DNA from: a virus
IMG/VR virus record: IMGVR_UViG_3300037264_001603
Coordinates: 13,321 to 77,320 of that record
Reading direction: 5' to 3' (one strand)
Length of the DNA: 64,000 nt
The notes under the pieces were generated by a model. That model searched no databases. It was not told where the DNA came from and saw only the letters and a program-made list of their open reading frames with translations. Shown in pieces: positions 39,876 through 64,000 of this stretch (positions are counted from its first letter, which is position 1; each line of letters starts with the position of its first letter). The translations under genes and the position numbers were made by a program.

Positions 39876-42164
39876 ATGACTACAAAAGACGTAGGCAAGA
39901 ACGCCGCAAAGAGCCTACTCGAAGAAGTTCGAGAGCTTGCTCTAGTTGTAGGCGAAGATTGTCCAGAAGGGCATCGCAAAGATCCTGGCAGCGGAAGATG
40001 CTTGCCAATGGGCGGACAAGACCACACACGATTCACGCGAAGCGTCAATAATGATGACGGCCCACAGTGGCGCGGAGAGGTCGATAAGACCAATACCACC
40101 TTTGCTTCCCAGAAAGAAGTGGCCCTTGACGCAGATGATATGGACGAACCACAAAGTTGTGCTGCCGGCACGACTTTTTCTTTTGTGCAGAGAAAATGCG
40201 TTTCCCTAGAGGAAGCCGAAGCGGAAGATAACGGAGACCTTGCGTTCGTAGAGGAAGAGGTAGCGGTGCAGCCTGAAGGCCGTCGCGATACTCCTAATCA
40301 CGCATGCCCGGCCAACCAGTTCTTCGATTTCAAGCGCCGCGAGTGCATCCCTCTAAACAAGGATACTGTATTGGCATCTGAGGATGTGGACGATGAGTTC
40401 AAGAAGGTGGTAGCTACTTACTTGTCGGGACGACTAGGAGTAACCTCCCCTGATCCTATTGATGGCCACAAGCATTTGGTTACAGTAGACACCGAAGGGA
40501 GTGGTAAGTCTTCCGTTTCTTCTAGCTATCATGGGGCGGAGTCTTACTATCATTCCCATGATGTAGAAGGTTATCTAGTTCAGGATTACAAGAAAGGCGA
40601 CTACCTCTCTCAGCACTTTGGACACGTTATTCCCAAGGAAATGTGGGAGCACGAGGACCACAGTTCAGACGCGGTTCCGGGCACGGCTGTGCCAGTTGCC
40701 GCCGAAGAAGCCAAGGAACTGCGCTCCAAGCAGCGAAACGCTCTTCCGGACAGCTCCTTTGGAGTTCCCGGTAAGAGGAAGTTCCCGCTAAACGACTGCG
40801 GGCATGTGCGCAATGCCATGGCTCGTTTCAATCAGGCCAAGGGCCTGACTTCCGGCGAGAAGGCGACTCTCCGCCGAAAGATCCTATCCCGGGCCAACGC
40901 CTGTGGAATCAAAGTCACCAGCTTCGGTAAGGCAAATACTGCAGAGGAGTTTGCCGCCGTCGTACAGGAGCTAATAGCAATGGAAACTCCAACCGAGACC
41001 CCTGTAGAGACTACAGAAACCGCTGAACGAATGAAGACATATGAGGCCGCAGCCCCGTACGCGGGACCTTGTCCTCCCGGAATGGTGTGGGATAAGATGG
41101 CCAAGAAGTGCTCCAAGGTTAGAGGTTTTGTAGAGGAACTGGCCAACCATTCTGAAATCGTTAGCAAGCAGCCAGAAGGCCGCCGAGACCCCGTTGGTTT
41201 CCAGTGCCCCGCTGGCAGCTTCTTTGACTTTACGGATCGCAAGTGTGTTCCTCTTGATCCTTCCAAGAAGCCTGGTACTACAACTACTAAGGCCAATGAG
41301 GAAGAGGATGCCGCAAAGAACAACCTCTCCCCGGGTCCCGCAGGTCAGCCTGCTCGTCTTCCCCAGGATTGCCCAGCCGGTACTATTTGGGATGGCGATC
41401 TACGAACTTGCAAGCCTTTAGACAGCAGCAAGAAGACCAAGTCCGCTGAGGAAGAGGCTGCATTGCCGGACTTCCTGAAAAAGATGATGGAGAAGAAAAA
41501 GAACAAGAAGGCCAAGTCTGAAGAGGAAGAGTCCCAGAGTACTTCTAACGGCCCCGGTAATAAGGGTGGCCCCGGTTGCCCTGAAGGCCAGTTCATGAAT
41601 CCTGTTACTAAGAAGTGCATGCCTCGCAAGGGTGCCTTCAAGGGGAAGAGTGAGACTGAGACCGCAGGACGCGAAGGCCTAACGACTGAAGTTCCGGGTA
41701 AGGTAAAGCTTCCCCAGGATTGCCCAGATGGTACCATTTGGGATGGCAACCGCCGCACCTGCACCCCACTAGATCCTAGCGACAAGAACCGCCCTAGCGG
41801 TAGTTCTGGTCCGATGAATCCCAAGAGTGTGGCTTCTCTATCCACCGCACAGTTGATTCAGGCGCTGGATGAGATTCTCAAGGAGCAGGGTGCCAAGGAG
41901 AAGAGTAGGGTTGTAGCCAAGTCTCTTCCCAACGCCGCGTTTCCTCCCTCCCTCGTCAGCGCTGCTCACCGCGCTTTGATGCATCACAATCCAGACGTTA
42001 CAGATCCCTATGATAACGCATCGGTTGATGTGGCCCGCCTGCGCAATGCTCTTTACCGCTCAGGCAAGGTAGAAGGTTTCTCGGATAAGGCTGTTGAGGA
42101 TGGAATTGAACATCTTCTCTTCCACGCCCGCGAGATCGTAGAGGCCCGAACAAAAAAAGACTAA
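39876..42164 (+). CDS. Cys-repeat head-associated protein (C-x12-C repeats, DUF6582-like segment); -1 frameshift extension to 42613
   Basis: 8 C-x12-C (CPxGxxF/WD-like) repeats; LPDSSFGVPGKRKFPL..GHVRNAMARFNQ. Confidence 0.7.
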   Translation: MTTKDVGKNAAKSLLEEVRELALVVGEDCPEGHRKDPGSGRCLPMGGQDHTRFTRSVNNDDGPQWRGEVDKTNTTFASQKEVALDADDMDEPQSCAAGTTFSFVQRKCVSLEEAEAEDNGDLAFVEEEVAVQPEGRRDTPNHACPANQFFDFKRRECIPLNKDTVLASEDVDDEFKKVVATYLSGRLGVTSPDPIDGHKHLVTVDTEGSGKSSVSSSYHGAESYYHSHDVEGYLVQDYKKGDYLSQHFGHVIPKEMWEHEDHSSDAVPGTAVPVAAEEAKELRSKQRNALPDSSFGVPGKRKFPLNDCGHVRNAMARFNQAKGLTSGEKATLRRKILSRANACGIKVTSFGKANTAEEFAAVVQELIAMETPTETPVETTETAERMKTYEAAAPYAGPCPPGMVWDKMAKKCSKVRGFVEELANHSEIVSKQPEGRRDPVGFQCPAGSFFDFTDRKCVPLDPSKKPGTTTTKANEEEDAAKNNLSPGPAGQPARLPQDCPAGTIWDGDLRTCKPLDSSKKTKSAEEEAALPDFLKKMMEKKKNKKAKSEEEESQSTSNGPGNKGGPGCPEGQFMNPVTKKCMPRKGAFKGKSETETAGREGLTTEVPGKVKLPQDCPDGTIWDGNRRTCTPLDPSDKNRPSGSSGPMNPKSVASLSTAQLIQALDEILKEQGAKEKSRVVAKSLPNAAFPPSLVSAAHRALMHHNPDVTDPYDNASVDVARLRNALYRSGKVEGFSDKAVEDGIEHLLFHAREIVEARTKKD

Positions 42165-52350: not shown

Positions 52351-54243
52351 ATGGCACGACGTAATCGAATCATTTACCCAAGCAATGCAGTTTGGGCCAA
52401 CGGTAACGTTCTCTACCGTGTGCAGACGTTTGGTTCTACCACAACGTTCAACACCGAGGACGTGTTCGAGCTTGGTCAGCTCAACATCATCGACGTAGTT
52501 GATGACTCCCCGACTGTAGCCGTGACCATTGAGACCAATGAATTTGGCTCGCTCTCCAACCTCTATGCGCTTGCGAACCTTGAACAGGACAACGTCCTTG
52601 TTCACGACGCAACCAGCGTAAGCGGACACCTTACTGTAGTAAGTGGTCTGGGGGATGCGGCAGTCAACATTGCGTACTATCACGGTGTCGCCCTTACTGA
52701 CTTTGGTCTATCCGCAGTTTGCGGTAACTCTTCGGTCGAGATCTGGGCCCCTATCCAGGATGAATGCTCCATTGGTACTGACAATGATGTCATTGAACAG
52801 ACCATGTTCCTGCCTCGCGTATTCGTCAACTCTGTTGAGTGGGCGTATTCTGCAGGTGCGAACGCTACCGAGAATTACGGTGGTGAAACGGATGCTAAGT
52901 TCTGGTTCGTAAACGACGGTAGGTTTGTATCGAGTGAAGAATTTGTCTACACCAGCGCAGCCGCAGGTACCGATCCTGATTCTAATAATGGTACTACCGG
53001 AGGAACCGGCTTCAAGATTAACACGGCCGTTACTACGGTATTCCTTGGTCTTGACCAAGGTGCAGCAACCCCAGAGCTAATTTCTACTCGCTCCACGGGT
53101 CAGCTTGCTTTCTTGCGCTTCGACAACTTCGGCAATCCAGCAGTTCGTTACTACAATGCTTCTGCTGGTGCAACTACGGAAATTCCAGTTCAGGCTGGTA
53201 CCGTAGCCGTTGCAGGCGCTTATGTTTACAACAGTGCAAACAACGCACTCATTCAACCCACCGATTTGACCACCAACACTGATCTTCTAGGTGAAGCAAA
53301 GGCTACTGGCGACATTCTCATGGTGATTTACGCAGCGAATGCATTTGCCAATTCCTTCGCAGGTCTAGTCGTAGGTACCCAAGCCGTTCGCGGTGGCGGT
53401 ACTGCCCCAACTTCTGTAATGGCAACTCGGCGCGACGCTGAGTACTTTGCCCCGATTGAAGTTGATACGGCCCACAAGCCAGAGGATCTTGGTGCTGTCC
53501 GACAGGGTCAGATTGAGATCTATCTAATTGACAAGGATGTTCTTGATTCAACCTTTGATTTGGATGATCAGCTAGCTCTACGCTTGACTTCTGTGACAAT
53601 TGCCGCAGATCTCACCCGTGAACCGCTGTTCGAACTCTCGCATCTACGACCGTATGACCGATCGCTCACTTTCCCAATTCCGTTCACTGTAACCGTTGAG
53701 TCTACGGCGAACGACCTCGTTGAGTACGCAACTTTGGCGTCCAAGCGACAAGGTGTTGTCACTGACGGCACCACCGATGAAATCTCGATTTACGATTTCA
53801 TGACTGCCAATACGCGCCTTGACCTTGTTGTTCAGGTTTACCAGCAGACTGATGAGGAAGCAGGTGGAACTGGTTCTAACCGACGCGTAGTTACTCGCGA
53901 AATGGTTGGTGATGAGTACTTCCAGAGGGGCAATCGCTCCGTCTACTACGACGGTGTGCTTGGCTCGGACCCGGATTTCCCGGCGACGAACTTTGGTTCT
54001 ACAATCCCAGCTGTTCCAACGAAGTCCAACACGCATCGAGAGCGCCCGCTTAAGACGATCGTTGCTAAGGATCTGCGAATCACCGACGAGGCCTACAACC
54101 TCTCTATGGGTGAGAACGCAACTCAGACCTTCGGCTTCCGAGGATCTAACAACCTCTTCGCCGTTCTCGGCGAAATTGATGTAGCAGATATGGTTGCTAG
54201 CCCCGGTCTCCAGGTCAATCCTTCCGCAAGGCGATTGTTCTAA
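52351..54243 (+). CDS. major tail (tube) protein
   Basis: 630 aa; high codon bias; RVQ...EDVFELG and REPLFEL tube-domain motifs; upstream of the chaperone and TMP genes. Confidence 0.75.
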   Translation: MARRNRIIYPSNAVWANGNVLYRVQTFGSTTTFNTEDVFELGQLNIIDVVDDSPTVAVTIETNEFGSLSNLYALANLEQDNVLVHDATSVSGHLTVVSGLGDAAVNIAYYHGVALTDFGLSAVCGNSSVEIWAPIQDECSIGTDNDVIEQTMFLPRVFVNSVEWAYSAGANATENYGGETDAKFWFVNDGRFVSSEEFVYTSAAAGTDPDSNNGTTGGTGFKINTAVTTVFLGLDQGAATPELISTRSTGQLAFLRFDNFGNPAVRYYNASAGATTEIPVQAGTVAVAGAYVYNSANNALIQPTDLTTNTDLLGEAKATGDILMVIYAANAFANSFAGLVVGTQAVRGGGTAPTSVMATRRDAEYFAPIEVDTAHKPEDLGAVRQGQIEIYLIDKDVLDSTFDLDDQLALRLTSVTIAADLTREPLFELSHLRPYDRSLTFPIPFTVTVESTANDLVEYATLASKRQGVVTDGTTDEISIYDFMTANTRLDLVVQVYQQTDEEAGGTGSNRRVVTREMVGDEYFQRGNRSVYYDGVLGSDPDFPATNFGSTIPAVPTKSNTHRERPLKTIVAKDLRITDEAYNLSMGENATQTFGFRGSNNLFAVLGEIDVADMVASPGLQVNPSARRLF

Positions 54244-56543: not shown

Positions 56544-59500
56544 GTGGTAGAAGAGAACTTCAAAATTGGTATAGAGCTAGAAGTTGACCAAAAAAGTCTA
56601 GCAGATATAACCAAACAAGTTGAACAGGCCGTAAAAGCTGGCTATCAAGGGGCTATCGGTCGGGCCGCCGCAAGCGGTCCGGCTGCTCCTCCTGCCGTCG
56701 CGGGAGGAACAGCTACAGCTAGAAGTATTCGGGAGGCGACCAGGGTAACCTCCGGAGATTTTACTGAGGCCGTGACGAAGCTCGCGAGGGAGAACCACGT
56801 AGTAGCGTCGCGATTTGACGACGCCGCAGCCGGTGTAGTTCAAGCATTAAGCAAACTTACGAAGGCTATTGAAAGCCGTGCAAGCGCCCAAACCGCTAGC
56901 GTGGCTAAAGCTGCAGCTGATGCTACCAGTAAGATTGTAGAGCAGCAGGTAGGGCCTTCTAACAAGAATCTAGCTAGAGATATTCAAAGAGGACGCCGCG
57001 AGGCAGGCCGCCAGGAAGAGGGCCTGTCTCAGCGGCGCTCTGATTTGAAGACCGGAACATCAAGGGATAGACCTAATGCCGGCGCATCTGCTCAGAGAGG
57101 AGTGGAAGCTAGGACCGACCCCCCAAAGGGACGGGCCATTCACCCCCTCGAACGACACGCAGAGGCGCAGGCTAAAGCTGTTGCTATCAGCCTAGATAGG
57201 CTCGGAAAGACCATTACTAGTTTGGGTAAGCTGGGTGAAATTCCCGGTCTACTCAAAAAGATTGGCCTACCTACTGGCGCGGATGTAAAAGTAGGTGAGG
57301 GTGCCTCTGTTCAAATCAAGACCCTTTCTGGTGAAGCAAAGACGGTTACCAGCTCTCTCCAAATTGTAGGTAGTAAGCTTACTCAGTTTAGTGATATTGT
57401 CACTAGGAGAGTAAACGATCTTCTGGCCGCTCCAGAATTTACTAGTCGTCTACAGAAAGCGGAACTCGCCGGTCGACGCGACCCAGAGCGTGCCATCGCT
57501 ATGCTCCGTAAGGAGCTTAAGGGTGTGCTGAATCTACCCATAGCCAAACTGGGTGGCGCGCAGGCGTATGAGAAGGCCGGGGAAGCTGTCCTAAACATTG
57601 ACTTCTCTGGTAATCCAGAACTTCAGGAGCGCTTAGTCCAACTAAAGGACGAAGCTGCCCAAATCTCTCTTTTGAATCGTGAACTTTGGGAAATGAACGA
57701 AGTTCTTGCCGAGCTACGAAAGAGGGGCGGGGAAGTCATTGGTTCGGTTGGCTTAAGTGAAGAGTCTGCGGCTAAGGCTAAGATCATCAAGGGAGAAGGT
57801 GGCGTCCCCATGGCCGCCGAGCTGCCCGTGCAGATTCGAGATTTGGCCGGTATGATTATGGGCGGTAAGGGTGCCATGCGTTGGGCTCGTTCTTTCCAGC
57901 CCCAGCAGGGACGTCAGATGGTGGAAGGTGAACGTCCTCGCATTATGGGTAAGGGTGAAGCTCAGGCCTATGAGACGGGTATGTACCGCGAGAATATGAC
58001 TCGCTCAATCAAGACGGCGTATGTTGACGCTCGTCAAGTACCCGAAGCGCACGAAGACATGATTTTGTTGGATAAGAAAGTCGCTGATAAGATGTCCACA
58101 TGGGAGCCTCAGATTACTGATGCCCTGAAGACTTTGGCCCACGATCTCCAAAAAGGACAGCAGCTAATTCATGGCCAGGTCTTGGGATACGATGTAGAGG
58201 GACAAGAGATCAAGTTCGATCTCAAGGGTGTACAAGCCGAAGTAGAGGGAGTTGAGGAAGTTGTAGAGAACGGTATAGAGGGCGTGCGCATCCGATTCAA
58301 GGAACTCTATAAGATGGCCACGGGTAGTAAGATGACTACCACGGCTGGTTTCAAGGGTGTCGTTCGCGTTGTCGAGGATTTGACTAAGTTCGGTGCTCCT
58401 AAGGGAGCCGAAGCAGCTATCACTGGTTTTGGAGCTGCGAAGCGTGGTGTTCTTTCTGACCCCATGAAGATGATGGCTTCTGAGATTTCCAAAATGGCAG
58501 GAGAAGGCGTTTCTCCACAAGAAGTAGCAGATAAGATTGAACAGGGTATGCGAGAAGGCGGACAAGACCTTGTTCAGGCAGTAGAGGCCGCGGCCCAGAT
58601 GGTTGGTGTTAAGGGCTTCAAGGCGGAAACTGCAGGTATGATAGGCGATATGCCGTGGGAGAGATTGAAGGAACCCAGGGTTCCCGGCCCGGCGGCAATT
58701 GGTACGAAGTATTACGATCTGCCGGCCATGAAAGCCCTTGGTATGCGGGCGGATACGTCCAAGATGATCGAGGATATGCAGGCCCGCATGTCCGAAGTAA
58801 CTGCTAAGAATTCCGAGTTCGTGGCTACTCTTAAGGCTTTAGCCGGAGAAACGGATGTAGCGGCTGAAAATCTACGCACTATGCTGCCGGAGGAGTTCAA
58901 GAGACTTCCTCCGGGAGTGGGCGCTATAGAGACATTTGCTGACACCATCTTGGATCCTAGATTCAAGGAGGCGTTAGCTATTCGTTTGCCCTCCCGCAGC
59001 GGCGAGGAGCGACTCCTCCGCATGCCCGGCATTGGTGGTGGCCTGGGTGCCCGCGGCTCATTTGAGACCTCTCTCGGAGCCAAAGGTCCGGATCCCCTCA
59101 CAAGAATGTTTGATAAGATGATTCAGACGGCACGGGATATTAGAGTGGCGGAAGGTAAGGCAAGCCCGGATCTTGCAGCTGATAGCGAGACAGCGAGCAA
59201 TGCCGCTCACGCTACGGCTAGGGCTATAAAAGATCAAGTTGATGCCTTGGAGAAACTCAACCTCAAGAGTGAGGCTGGCGCTGCTGCTGCAGACAAGTTT
59301 GTTAATGGACTATTGCCACTTATTGAAGCTCTAAATACTAAGCTAACCGATCCTATTCAGTTCTTTAAGATGAAAGGCGGCGAGCGCGTAGGAGAGACGC
59401 CTGTCACCACGGCACGTGCCGGTTCGGATGCCGCTGGATTTATCCGTGGGGCACCTACCGCCGAACGACGATTGTATGGGTTACAGGACGTATTGACGGG

Positions 59501-62500
59501 TAGAACAGCACGTAAGTCTCAGAAGTCAGAGAATGTTCCCACTATGGGCGAGCTGTTCAAGAATGCTCCATTGCTACAAAAGGTTATGGAACAACTAGGA
59601 GTTACTCTACAAGCAGACGCCGCGGCGGCCGATAAATTGTATTCCCGCTTAGAGAAACTGGAAGATGGTCTGGTTAGTGCGTACAGCATGTTGACTTTTG
59701 CTACCGAGGGTGGGGGTAAGCCTAGTTCCGCGATGAAGACCCCATTCTCAGGACAAGTAGGTACTGGTTTGGCTATGACCCACCGGGAATTGACGGCGAT
59801 TCAAATGCGAACCGATGTCGATGAAGAGTTAGGGGCAGTTCATGATAGATTACAACAATTAGCTGCTGCCGGACAAGATGTCAACGCCGCAATGGCTGCT
59901 TTGGATAGATTGGCTAACTTACAAGGAAATGTAGCCAAGATTCCACGCGACGCAGTATTTATCAATAAGACGGATTGGGCCAATCTTGTAAAGGCCACTA
60001 TGAAGGAAAAGGGCATTGATCAGGGAGAGGCTGAACGAAGGTTGTCTCGTCCCGGACTTTTGCATCGTTATCCTACGACAGGCGGCGCTAGCTTCTTAGC
60101 TACTCGCCCGCAGGTTGATCCCACTGGTACCATTCCGGAAGGTAAGATCGGCGTGGCTGGACCAATGGCGGCGTCTCCGGAAGATTTGGCAACCATGTTG
60201 AAGCCTTTGCGCGAGCACGAGCAGGAACTATACCGTGTAATAGAGGCCGAACGTGGTCAGGGCGCGGCCTCTGATGCTGCCCGTGTTCAATTGGAGTCCC
60301 TAGTTCCTGTACTCCAAAGGCTACAGCAGCTTTACTTGGCTGTAGGCCTAAATTTGGACTTTGACGGGGATAAGATCAGCTGGCTAGCTAACATGTCTAA
60401 AGAGGCAGGTTCCGGCATAGAAACTTTCACTCAGAAGATTGATAAGGGCGGGGTTAGCTTCCAGCAAATGATGCTGAATATTATGGGTAAGGTCAAGGGC
60501 GGGGCAACTGGAAATCTCAAGGAATACTCCGAGCTGTTCGGGCAGGTAGCCAAGGGTAGATCTGGTGACCTCCGCCGTTCCGTTCTCATGCCAGAAACGG
60601 GAGCCACTGCTCAGTTCGAGACCCAGGCGCACATTGGTGGTAAGAAGTCGGTGGGTCTTCTTACCGATGCATTCAACAAGATCATGGTATCCATTTCGGT
60701 AGGTACCAAGGAAGTAGGTGATTCCTTCGCTACCGGTATGGACTACATCATGATGAACATCAATAAGTCCCTTGCTCAAAAGAGCGGCGGCGCAGGTATC
60801 GCTGGACCTAAGGAGTTTTTGGACGACCTCAAGGCTGGAAGTCTAGAGAAGATCTCCCAGGGCATGCGCTCCGGAAAGGGCGGCCTCTATGAGGAAATGG
60901 GTGAGTATAACAAGCAGATGCGCAACCAGATGCGCGAATCCTTTACTAGCACGTTCTTCCGAAAGGGAGCAGGCGGGCTACAAGATGTTGCTAAGGCCGA
61001 AGGAATAGCTGGAGAGCTACCTAAGGACATCACTTTTGAGAACTTCCGTTCTGTTGTTGATCAGATGGTAGATTCTTTGGACCTAGAGGCACAAATTACT
61101 CGTATGTTCCAAATGATGAAGAAGAACATGGTAACAGCATTGGCCAAGCAGGGCATGGGGATGCCGGAAATAGAAACTGCTATGGGAAAGATGTTTACTC
61201 CAGGAAAGGGAGGCAAGATCCCAGGACTCGATGTGGATCAGCTATTGGGCCAATTGGCTCCAGAATACCTCATGACCAGGCGAAAGCAAGTCAAGGGTCT
61301 GCGAGAAGAAGCATCCCCGATGGCGAAGGCGCAAGAGGCTTTGAAGATTCTGGCCAGAAACGTAGCAGAACAAGTAGCAACCACTTCTGACGAATTCAAC
61401 CTGGAAGAAACGGTAGACCCGCGCGCCCAGGCCAGAGAGATTTCTCAGAAGCTATTGGCGTGGTATCAGAGCATCAAAGACAGTTTCTCTGTGGTAATGC
61501 GACAGGAAGATTTTGGCAAACTAACCGGAGGTAAGTACCCGGAGAAGGTTGTTGGTAGGATTGGAGGCATGCACAAGCCTGAGGCTGGTGGCCCCGGCGA
61601 AATCTTCATGAGCTTTCAGAACAGGATTAAGCCATTCATGGAAGCGGTAAAGAAACTGAAAGAGATCGGGGAAGGAGCACCTGCTACTGCCGAGGGAGTT
61701 CAGAAACTTGCCAAAGACATTAAGGCTTTCGGTGCAACTCTAAGCCACGAGAAGATTCACCAGGCCAATAAGATTTGGACAGACGCCATTGACGGACTTG
61801 TCCGCAGTCTGCAATCTAAGCGAACCTTCATTGGTAAGGAATCTGACAAGATTCTAGCCGCCCTGCTGCCGAAAGCTAACATTGCGGCCTTGTCTAAAGA
61901 TGCGGATAGGTGGAAGAAGGTATCCGAAGAGGTCGGAGACCCTGAACTTCCTGAGTTAAAAGGTGCCGCCAAGAAACTCTTCACTCAATTGGCCGAAGAG
62001 CTTATGGCATACCAGGCCGACCCTGCCGCATTCAAGAAGATGATGGAAGGCGCAGACGTATCGGAAAGAGCCATCCGAAAGCTCTCCGAAGCATTGAACA
62101 CCCTGGTAAAAGATGCTTCGCGGGCGACCGGGGCAACAGTAGATAAGGACATCCTGGGCGCGTCCCGCACTGCCGGTGAGGCCTCCTCCGAAGTCATGAG
62201 TCTATCCCAAAGCATTGGGCAGCTGTGCGCCACTACTAGCGACGCAACGCAAGATATGAAGAAGCTAGGCGACGCCATGGGGGCCAGCTTCGCAGGTATT
62301 TTCCAGTCCATGAATGAGAAGTTGACTCAGCAAGAAGCTGCGGTTATGCAGGGAACTGGAATGCTGGGATTGCCCTCAGTCGCTCGAAAGGGAGGCAAGC
62401 TAGAGTTTGGCGAGGACATTGGTAAGTTGGGGGTAGAGACGCAACTACCAATCCTTACAGATAAGATCAAGAGTATTATGGAAGCAGCCCGATCTGGCTT

Positions 62501-64000
62501 CCCCGATGTCGGAACGCTAGCCACCGCTGAACGTGAACTCAATAATGCAGCTAACGATCTCCGCGCGGGGGTTTCTCAACTAGAGAAGGATAGGGAGAGT
62601 GGCATAGGACGAGGTACTGGGCACAAGGTGTTCCAGAAGGTTTGGCGAGAATTCCACCAGGCTGTTTCTTTGAGCATGATTAACAAGGCACGAGGCCTTC
62701 AACGAGAAATTTCGGAGATGAAGTCCACTGGTGCGGACGTCAAAGATCCCGGTAAATTGAGGGATCTGCTCAACGAACTAAACCAAACCGTCATTCAGCA
62801 TGAGGAATATTTGGCTAGGTCTCTCAAGTCCCGCGGCCGCGGTCGAGGCACTATGACTAGCCACATCGCCACTGCCGGCGGTGAACTGGTTCCTGCAGCG
62901 GTTGAGTCTGGAATTAGACCATCTCAGGAAATGCTGGACGCACAACTATCTTCCATTGCTGGATACGGCAAGGAAGGCAAGACATTCATGACCCAAATGG
63001 GTGGAGCTATCGAATTTGCTGTTTCGGAAATGAAGCAGGGCAAAGACATTACTGAGGCTTGGGTGGGCCTATTCTCCGCTCTCAAAGAGCAGCCGGAGTT
63101 GTTCCACACCAACTTGGTAAAGGTTGCTGAAATGCTTTCCCGTATCGCTACCCACTTGGGGACCTTTGGTGGCAAGTTTGCTGATACATCCACCAGCATG
63201 ATGGAAATGGTGAAGCACGCCAAGGCGCTCGGCCGCGCTACCGAAGGTAAGATCATCAAGAACGCAGGAGATTTGAATGAGGCCCTTACAGGGGCACCAA
63301 AGCAGGCTAAGATGGCGGCCGCCGTTGGCGGTGGTACCAGTTTGGCGGAATCCGTCAAGACCCAGTACGCAGAGGCAGAGGCTGCCGCTAAGAGTTATCA
63401 ACAACGCCTACAATCCCTGGTAAACGACCAAGAAGCATTTGCCAAGGCTGGTAGACCCAAGGTATTTGCACCAATCACTAAGGACATTATCGACCCAAGC
63501 ACGGGCAAGGTTCTGCAGCAAGTTAGAATCGAAGCTAAGAGATCCGGAGATACTGTTACTACCAGCATGAAGAATGCTACCGGTGCGGCTAATCTCTTTG
63601 GTAATCAGATGCGCAGCGCTCTCCGACGTGTTGTTCAGTGGGGATTTGCATCAGGTGCCATTTACGGATTGATCCGAGGCTTCCGTGCTCTATCCGACAC
63701 CGTTGTTACCGTACAGAATAAGATGGCCGAACTTCAGAAGGTTATGGATACTTCCATTACTGACTTTGGGCGTTTGCAGACTACAGCGGTGAACATGGCC
63801 AAGAACTTCGGTGTGGCTATCGAAGATGTGTTGGATGGTATGGTGGTATATGGTCAGCAAGGTTTGAAGATGAATCAGATTACTGAGAGAACCAAGGCTA
63901 CCCTGTTGGCTGTTAATACCACTACTCTAGATACTACCGAAGCGACGGAAGCCCTCACCGCGGCGCATAAGGTATTTTCTGATGAGATTGGTACCAGTAT
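56544..64000 (+). CDS. giant tape-measure polyprotein with two-barrel RNA polymerase motifs and zincin domain (3' partial, at least 2485 aa)
   Basis: GGAGG then GTG at 56544; no stop to the window end; HED (58050), GSKMTTTAGFKGVV (58323), HRYP (60063), NLDFDGD (60351), HEKIH (61746), TP901-like TMP core from ~63600. Confidence 0.85.
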   Translation, partial: MVEENFKIGIELEVDQKSLADITKQVEQAVKAGYQGAIGRAAASGPAAPPAVAGGTATARSIREATRVTSGDFTEAVTKLARENHVVASRFDDAAAGVVQALSKLTKAIESRASAQTASVAKAAADATSKIVEQQVGPSNKNLARDIQRGRREAGRQEEGLSQRRSDLKTGTSRDRPNAGASAQRGVEARTDPPKGRAIHPLERHAEAQAKAVAISLDRLGKTITSLGKLGEIPGLLKKIGLPTGADVKVGEGASVQIKTLSGEAKTVTSSLQIVGSKLTQFSDIVTRRVNDLLAAPEFTSRLQKAELAGRRDPERAIAMLRKELKGVLNLPIAKLGGAQAYEKAGEAVLNIDFSGNPELQERLVQLKDEAAQISLLNRELWEMNEVLAELRKRGGEVIGSVGLSEESAAKAKIIKGEGGVPMAAELPVQIRDLAGMIMGGKGAMRWARSFQPQQGRQMVEGERPRIMGKGEAQAYETGMYRENMTRSIKTAYVDARQVPEAHEDMILLDKKVADKMSTWEPQITDALKTLAHDLQKGQQLIHGQVLGYDVEGQEIKFDLKGVQAEVEGVEEVVENGIEGVRIRFKELYKMATGSKMTTTAGFKGVVRVVEDLTKFGAPKGAEAAITGFGAAKRGVLSDPMKMMASEISKMAGEGVSPQEVADKIEQGMREGGQDLVQAVEAAAQMVGVKGFKAETAGMIGDMPWERLKEPRVPGPAAIGTKYYDLPAMKALGMRADTSKMIEDMQARMSEVTAKNSEFVATLKALAGETDVAAENLRTMLPEEFKRLPPGVGAIETFADTILDPRFKEALAIRLPSRSGEERLLRMPGIGGGLGARGSFETSLGAKGPDPLTRMFDKMIQTARDIRVAEGKASPDLAADSETASNAAHATARAIKDQVDALEKLNLKSEAGAAAADKFVNGLLPLIEALNTKLTDPIQFFKMKGGERVGETPVTTARAGSDAAGFIRGAPTAERRLYGLQDVLTGRTARKSQKSENVPTMGELFKNAPLLQKVMEQLGVTLQADAAAADKLYSRLEKLEDGLVSAYSMLTFATEGGGKPSSAMKTPFSGQVGTGLAMTHRELTAIQMRTDVDEELGAVHDRLQQLAAAGQDVNAAMAALDRLANLQGNVAKIPRDAVFINKTDWANLVKATMKEKGIDQGEAERRLSRPGLLHRYPTTGGASFLATRPQVDPTGTIPEGKIGVAGPMAASPEDLATMLKPLREHEQELYRVIEAERGQGAASDAARVQLESLVPVLQRLQQLYLAVGLNLDFDGDKISWLANMSKEAGSGIETFTQKIDKGGVSFQQMMLNIMGKVKGGATGNLKEYSELFGQVAKGRSGDLRRSVLMPETGATAQFETQAHIGGKKSVGLLTDAFNKIMVSISVGTKEVGDSFATGMDYIMMNINKSLAQKSGGAGIAGPKEFLDDLKAGSLEKISQGMRSGKGGLYEEMGEYNKQMRNQMRESFTSTFFRKGAGGLQDVAKAEGIAGELPKDITFENFRSVVDQMVDSLDLEAQITRMFQMMKKNMVTALAKQGMGMPEIETAMGKMFTPGKGGKIPGLDVDQLLGQLAPEYLMTRRKQVKGLREEASPMAKAQEALKILARNVAEQVATTSDEFNLEETVDPRAQAREISQKLLAWYQSIKDSFSVVMRQEDFGKLTGGKYPEKVVGRIGGMHKPEAGGPGEIFMSFQNRIKPFMEAVKKLKEIGEGAPATAEGVQKLAKDIKAFGATLSHEKIHQANKIWTDAIDGLVRSLQSKRTFIGKESDKILAALLPKANIAALSKDADRWKKVSEEVGDPELPELKGAAKKLFTQLAEELMAYQADPAAFKKMMEGADVSERAIRKLSEALNTLVKDASRATGATVDKDILGASRTAGEASSEVMSLSQSIGQLCATTSDATQDMKKLGDAMGASFAGIFQSMNEKLTQQEAAVMQGTGMLGLPSVARKGGKLEFGEDIGKLGVETQLPILTDKIKSIMEAARSGFPDVGTLATAERELNNAANDLRAGVSQLEKDRESGIGRGTGHKVFQKVWREFHQAVSLSMINKARGLQREISEMKSTGADVKDPGKLRDLLNELNQTVIQHEEYLARSLKSRGRGRGTMTSHIATAGGELVPAAVESGIRPSQEMLDAQLSSIAGYGKEGKTFMTQMGGAIEFAVSEMKQGKDITEAWVGLFSALKEQPELFHTNLVKVAEMLSRIATHLGTFGGKFADTSTSMMEMVKHAKALGRATEGKIIKNAGDLNEALTGAPKQAKMAAAVGGGTSLAESVKTQYAEAEAAAKSYQQRLQSLVNDQEAFAKAGRPKVFAPITKDIIDPSTGKVLQQVRIEAKRSGDTVTTSMKNATGAANLFGNQMRSALRRVVQWGFASGAIYGLIRGFRALSDTVVTVQNKMAELQKVMDTSITDFGRLQTTAVNMAKNFGVAIEDVLDGMVVYGQQGLKMNQITERTKATLLAVNTTTLDTTEATEALTAAHKVFSDEIGTS

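Follow-up and report, generated by a model that had tools for sequence, protein, structure and literature searches.

A predicted two-barrel RNA polymerase at the front of a giant tape measure protein in a sediment phage lineage

The 64,000-nucleotide stretch of viral DNA analyzed here (from IMG/VR virus record IMGVR_UViG_3300037264_001603), referred to as the window, ends within a giant gene for a tape measure protein (TMP). The front of this giant TMP is probably a single-chain RNA polymerase (RNAP) of the two-barrel type, which would be delivered with the tail and would transcribe the first genes of the phage. The fusion is a conserved feature: more than 20 giants from independent assemblies have it, so it did not arise by accident in a single assembly. 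Moreover, structure prediction places a two-barrel RNAP module ahead of a TP901-type TMP core in the same chain. Both the conserved fusion and the polymerase fold were established by computation. Delivery with the tail was considered the most economical reading because of the conservation of the fusion in these giants and the analogy with gp96 of Thermus phage P23-45.

gp96 is a 5,002-residue TMP which begins with an active RNAP (Chaban et al., 2024, Nat Commun 15:317, PMC10770324; bioRxiv 2022). It is present in virions as a full-length protein, and at 5 min post-infection it binds the pre-early genes at one genome end and transcribes them as a DNA-dependent transcriptase. The minimal active fragment spans residues 327-1,124, with DFDGD at position 779, while the N-terminal 326 residues are disordered and dispensable. 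The polymerase is flat and clamp-less, a shape which the authors tie to passage through the tail. Structures have been deposited (PDB 8H2M and 8H2N), and fusions of this type were reported only in P23-45, P74-26, G20c, and TSP4 (Chaban et al., 2024). A full-text literature search found no other papers on polymerase-tape measure fusions. The initial annotation of the window had regarded this architecture as undescribed, a claim which gp96 refutes. The architecture itself is thus already known, and what is new here is a second lineage, unrelated in sequence to gp96 and of a different build. To our knowledge, before 2024 virion polymerases were known only as separately packaged proteins, namely in N4, crAss-like, and phiKZ-like phages.

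The fused gene and its relatives

The giant gene was originally read as one unbroken frame from a GTG codon at 56544 to the window end. This was confirmed, as the frame runs on the + strand to position 63998 of 64000 and comprises 2,485 codons with zero stops. The virus contig is 77,320 nt long, and the window takes up its bases 13321-77320, so that both end at the same base. No terminal overlap exists between the contig ends, and a circular join would supply just 55 more residues, therefore the gene was concluded to be truncated by assembly. The leader and GTG start are also found in a relative on another viral contig (L001), which is 55% identical and whose alignment begins at residue 1. The N-terminal extension (residues 1-469) is likewise present in L001 from residue 1, but it shows low conservation and its family consensus is mostly variable.

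The fusion frame is real. A chimera or a frame error which joined a polymerase gene to a TMP gene is very improbable, even though the contig end truncates the gene and chimeras are possible in metagenome assemblies. In fact, an independent study yielded a contig of 6,593 nt which spans 57029-63621, from the polymerase to the ruler core, with 0 differences and 0 indels, so that neither a stop nor a frame error separates the polymerase motifs from the TMP core. The identical fusion also recurs in many independent assemblies, and the 2,485 codons are stop-free at 50% G+C. The runs which contain the giant-gene stretch are sediment metagenomes; no meaning was attached to the parts left uncovered in runs X3 and X4. 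The contig in the DNA run extends ~3.5 kb beyond the end of the window. The stretch was found in metatranscriptome contigs as well, but this was not counted as evidence of transcription because DNA carry-over is possible.

The second half of the fusion was identified by family matches. Residues ~2,260-2,480 match PHROG tape-measure families (phrog_4211, E 9e-34), and residues 2,317-2,446 match the TMPs of Bacillus phage Basilisk and its kin by tblastn. In the window the PF10145 core is cut off after ~100 residues; at the equivalent place in complete relatives (L006, L007, L001, and P0007) PF10145 scores 84-88 bits against a cut-off of 33.2. Based on these matches the giant protein is assigned a TP901-type TMP core, in agreement with the initial annotation. 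The likeness to TP901-1-family TMPs (PF10145, PhageMin_Tail) comprises the core region from residue ~2,340 and the hydrophobic segment which precedes it. Ordinary members of that family have 600-2,000 residues in total, whereas here an enzyme-bearing extension of ~2,300 residues lies ahead of the core. Behind the core, the complete relatives have one or two membrane-like segments and then ~2,000 further helical residues.

A profile search run exhaustively against 1.84 billion representatives returned 39 proteins, 27 of them at E < 1e-30, and nearly all the full-length ones have 4,000-5,300 residues. L001 shares the upstream gene order of the window and has a frame of 5,062 residues, and two metagenome contigs (L006 and L007) contain complete genes of 4,596 and 4,365 residues. 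Their layout is shared with about 20 further giants of 4,000-5,300 residues. Every full-length member contains the motif N-[LAM]-D-[FIL]-D-G-D.

Several observations concern individual relatives. A 49.6-kb contig (L012, WJJK01000045.1) which was binned into a Candidatus Altiarchaeales metagenome-assembled genome has the same tail module and giant gene, truncated by the contig end; either a phage contig was placed in the wrong bin, or this may point to the host. Three distant members contain the variant [QK]-L-D-[FY]-D-G-D-[AQ]-L-x-[FLV]-H in other architectures: P0037 (3,068 aa, motif at residue 2,040), P0040 (the motif within a protein of 544 aa), and P0033 (5,013 aa). These may represent further fusion types or free-standing paralogues. 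At the C-terminus of the L006 protein (residues 4,477-4,535, contig positions 22280-22400) an alanine-zipper match resembling an outer-membrane lipoprotein was found exactly at the Pfam cut-off, and it may be a membrane-contact element at the tip end of the ruler.

The polymerase module

The catalytic motifs of a two-barrel RNAP had been noted in frame upstream of the TMP core, and they proved to be conserved across the family. The giant protein has a single DxDxD, within NLDFDGD, and the number of DFDGD strings expected by composition is 0.0008. In a 27-sequence alignment with identity down to 17%, the D, D, G, and D of NLDFDGD are invariant and the N and L nearly so. R1175, P1177, T1179, and S1183 of a second motif, RYPTTGGAS, are also invariant in this alignment. 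We take the two motifs together to reproduce the beta-prime barrel signature R-x-P-[ST]-L-H-x-x-S ... NADFDGD. Some family members have NADFDGD itself or DFDGDQLMVH, and the catalytic residues are retained in members as low as 17-20% identity. Further upstream, a two-lysine motif (TGSK..GFKG in the window) is kept across the family as TGxKxxTxxGxKG, which recalls the beta motif GDKxxxxxGNKG. Past the catalytic barrel lies a conserved 33-residue helix with the sequence GKKSVGLLTDxFN, tentatively assigned in the model as the bridge helix.

Profile comparison with known polymerases gave results of uneven strength. When the family was aligned to E. coli beta-prime with hhalign, the alignment fell at 455-484 (prob 70%, E 4e-5) and coincided precisely with NADFDGD. 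For the beta-like part, the alignment landed on residues 1063-1135 of RpoB, which is the correct place, but it was not significant. The giant protein sequence has no match in Pfam, and phmmer found none in the PDB. Zero polymerase families were found when the family members were searched against Pfam at E values up to 10, and no polymerase was found when the family profile was searched against PDB sequences. The polymerases of mReC phages were also considered and set aside; these are encoded by separate beta and beta-prime genes which were found with COG hidden Markov models (HMMs) (PMC7481178), whereas Pfam polymerase models match nothing here.

Further evidence came from structure prediction. 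Residues 470-1,660 were modeled with AlphaFold2 (AF2) from 33 family sequences; templates were not used, and the alignment was free of known polymerases. The model reached a predicted local distance difference test (pLDDT) value of 84.4 and a predicted template modeling (pTM) score of 0.75. An earlier model of residues 760-1,700, which was built from 5 sequences and excluded the beta-like barrel, had a pLDDT of 40.6 and was unusable. Foldseek matched the new model to 279 PDB chains at E ≤ 0.001, and the top listed matches were all RNAP second-largest subunits. The model matches RNAP beta and then beta-prime, in that order, and VIA-align matched model residues 609-826 to plain double-psi barrels. 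The predicted catalytic core contains two double-psi barrels, the beta type followed by the beta-prime type, which accords with the two-barrel RNAP proposed in the initial annotation. A solved polymerase clamp domain is matched by part of the residues which follow the first barrel. Among polymerases, gp96 is the weakest fold match of the model. The crAss-like phage protein gp66 (6VR4) is absent from the listed fold matches, which is no evidence against kinship, and the ESM Atlas was uninformative for the polymerase part.

Predicted viral structures in BFVD which match the model include beta subunits of giant viruses and poxviruses. BFVD alignments of 1,100-1,400 columns were also obtained with three proteins, namely one labeled 'Minor tail protein' from an uncultured siphovirus (Siphoviridae sp. 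ctnpt50), one from Microcystis phage MaMV-DC which is uncharacterized, and A0A7R7G2L5. Judging from the model, further catalogued phage proteins may hide the same polymerase.

The best fold matches are thus the multisubunit enzymes (beta/beta-prime and Rpb2/Rpb1, including giant-virus and jumbo-phage versions), with the C-terminal part of beta followed by beta-prime. Motifs in common with these enzymes are GxKxxxxxGxKG, RxP[ST]....S, and N[AL]DFDGD. Unlike them, the module here is part of one chain and fused to a tail protein, the N-terminal lobes of beta are absent from the modeled part, and no sequence match is found at the level of Pfam or COG. Other single-chain two-barrel polymerases are QDE-1/RDR2, P23-45 gp64 and P74-26 gp62, gp66 of crAss-like phage phi14:2, and YonO. 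None of these is fused to a TMP; crAss gp66 is a separate virion protein, and P23-45 gp64 has no sequence similarity to the present family by hhalign or BLASTP. The features of the giant gene are collected in Table 1.

Table 1. Features of the giant tape measure gene, in window positions.
Feature	Position	Strand	Remarks
Ribosome-binding site GGAGG and GTG start codon	56530..56546	+	GGAGG ~9 nt upstream of GTG; read from the sequence
Giant tape measure gene, first 2,485 codons	56544..64000	+	Truncated at contig end
N-terminal extension, residues 1-469	56544..57950	+	Ala/Gly/Lys/Glu-rich (composition)
Beta-like module (predicted), residues 470-751	57951..58796	+	Contains the first barrel
Two-lysine motif TGSKMTTTAGFKG, residues 593-605	58320-58358	+	Inside beta-like module
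Beta-prime-like module (predicted), residues 767-1,609	58842..61370	+	Includes the part matching a solved clamp domain
Catalytic barrel (predicted), residues ~1,078-1,295	59775-60428	+	Within beta-prime-like module
RYPTTGGAS, residues 1,175-1,183	60066..60092	+	Counterpart of beta-prime R-x-P-[ST]-L-H-x-x-S strand
NLDFDGD, residues 1,270-1,276	60351..60371	+	Metal-binding aspartate triad; sole DxDxD in the protein
GGKKSVGLLTDAFNK, tentative bridge helix	60636..60680	+	Strongly conserved; inside 33-residue model helix H884-916
HEKIH, residues 1,735-1,739	61746..61760	+	Conserved HExxH; candidate zincin site
Conserved EEL	61995-62003	+	Downstream of HEKIH
Start of TP901-type tape measure core, residues 2,339-2,478	63558..63977	+	phrog_4211, tblastn, PF10145 in relatives
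Hydrophobic segment RRVVQWGF...	63624-63683	+	Ahead of tape measure core

Proposed delivery with the tail and competing functions

The chain begins with a variable N-terminal arm of ~470 residues, followed by the predicted beta-like module with one barrel, the predicted beta-prime-like module, the conserved HExxH segment, and the TP901-type core from ~2,340. The beta-prime-like module includes the clamp-matching part and the catalytic barrel, which would hold the magnesium site NLDFDGD. In the proposed mechanism, the whole protein would be assembled into the tail such that its C-terminus points to the tip, and it would be expelled at infection. The ruler part and the membrane segments would then form a conduit through the envelope. 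The N-terminal polymerase would adjoin the incoming DNA end and would transcribe the first genes without the host enzyme, and the HExxH segment may cut the polymerase free.

This arrangement resembles that of gp96 in several ways. Both are giant TMPs (~5,000 residues) in which a single-chain two-barrel polymerase lies close to the N-terminus and the beta-like barrel precedes the beta-prime-like barrel with its DFDGD triad. Both have an N-terminal arm ahead of the polymerase (dispensable in gp96) and membrane-like segments in the ruler part. However, BLASTP, HMM searches of the PDB, and hhalign revealed no sequence similarity beyond DFDGD. The barrel motifs lie ~680 residues apart here, whereas the spacing in gp96 looks several-fold shorter (DFDGD at 779, with a 67-residue connector at 613-679). 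The gp96 ruler contains a Peptidase_M23 domain (E 1e-21) and lacks both PF10145 and HExxH. Conversely, the family described here has PF10145 and HExxH, and no M23 was detected in L001, L006, or L007 at E ≤ 0.01. Part of the present model matches a solved clamp domain, while gp96 is clamp-less. No other gene in the window matches the structural half of P23-45, whose genome is 84-86 kb against an estimated ~300 kb here. Neither half of the fusion looks related to its counterpart in gp96, therefore an independent origin is plausible, although the two may still share very deep common descent.

Several points weigh against delivery with the tail followed by early transcription. For the present lineage, presence in the virion, polymerase activity, and early transcription are all deduced from the gp96 precedent and from what is generally known about TMPs. 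The clamp match is at odds with the proposal that a flat, clamp-less shape accounts for the tail passage of gp96 (Chaban et al., 2024), and a clamp-bearing enzyme would therefore need to be unfolded in transit or be located outside the tube. The putative bridge helix receives no support from hhalign with beta-prime. No second polymerase was seen, either as another DxDxD candidate or as a paralogue, in the 77-kb contig, which is ~26% of the estimated genome. Repeated promoter-like motifs were sought in the window, and none was convincing (the contig is about a quarter of the estimated genome). The initial annotation placed the gene in the tape-measure slot behind tail tube and chaperone genes. 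The giant gene does lie downstream of the terminase and major head protein genes with conserved upstream synteny, and this gene order and synteny are what support its position in a tail module. The tube and chaperone labels were not confirmed: the eight genes between the head protein and the giant gene have no PHROG, Pfam, or NCBIfam match, and no tail-family match in these collections was found for the neighboring and downstream genes.

The HExxH segment bears on where the enzyme would act. With the exception of P0033 and P0037, which are without it, nearly all the full-length members have an HExxH located ~450 residues past DFDGD. Among 5 aligned sequences its H, E, and H are invariant, as is EEL. 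A profile search of the PDB and the language-model Atlas returned no peptidase for this region, only helical or tape-measure-like look-alikes. From its motifs the segment, which lies between the polymerase and the ruler core, may be a peptidase that processes the chain itself. Its conservation would also suit a different course of events, in which the polymerase part is cut off in the infected cell (for example at HExxH) before tail assembly and serves as a non-virion middle or late polymerase, so that only the ruler is packaged. Passage through the tail tube would be awkward for a module of 1,190 residues with a matched clamp part, which would agree with such cleavage, as would the lack of a separate polymerase gene in the 77-kb contig. 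Nevertheless, pre-assembly cleavage is unlikely, since gp96, the one tested case, is full length in virions (Chaban et al., 2024). Moreover, if the two parts acted separately, it would be difficult to account for a fusion which all of the more than 20 divergent giants have kept, and the TMP gene, as a late gene, is a poor place for an enzyme which is needed earlier.

A further possibility is that the fold is derived from a polymerase but no longer transcribes, and acts during genome entry as a DNA-gripping or pulling device or as a primer-making enzyme. This was judged slightly less probable again than cleavage before assembly. Nucleotide addition is indicated by the invariance of the full metal triad, of both lysines, and of the R-x-P-T..S strand. 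In addition, DNA-dependent enzymes match the fold at least equally well, and gp96 is itself a DNA-dependent transcriptase (Chaban et al., 2024). A transcribing polymerase delivered with the tail thus remains the preferred reading.

A more far-reaching interpretation can be offered tentatively. It is possible that the fusion arose independently and by convergence, with a polymerase closer in fold to cellular beta/beta-prime, a clamp-like part, and a TP901-type ruler. It would mark a widespread clade of ~300-kb sediment phages, and its HExxH segment would release the enzyme after entry. If true, transcription from a tail-delivered enzyme would be a repeatedly evolved strategy and not an oddity of Thermus phages. 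A phage which carries its own polymerase into the cell does not depend on that of the host, starting with the very first second of infection. The same solution is now seen in a lineage without detectable kinship to P23-45, with dozens of relatives in sediments, some on contigs of up to 312 kb. This suggests that the fusion is general, possibly with more than one origin. An enzyme with a clamp would challenge the idea that flatness is required for passage through the tail. Finally, the family would provide new compact polymerases of the cellular type for structural and evolutionary work.

Neighboring genes and phage clade

One neighbor of the giant gene is a 630-residue protein (52351-54243, + strand) which belongs to no known family and is conserved far better than the TMP. 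Its relatives number more than 500, with roughly 40-93% identity to it for the best 120, and some of them sit on contigs of 246-312 kb. This is probably a major tail protein or another virion protein, and a handy marker for the ~300-kb phage clade.

Genome size was estimated from completeness values. CheckV assigned 26% completeness to the 77-kb contig and 10% to a 31-kb relative, which leads to a jumbo genome near 300 kb. Taken together, the CheckV values, the 246-312-kb contigs with relatives of the 630-residue protein, and the sediment runs point to a widespread sediment phage clade with genomes of ~300 kb, to which this phage probably belongs.

In the head module, a 762-residue protein (39876-42164, + strand) contains cysteine repeats similar to chitin-binding peritrophin-A (CBM_14, E 1e-16) together with DUF6582. 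Two 79-nt direct repeats are found within the same stretch, at 41358 and 41709.

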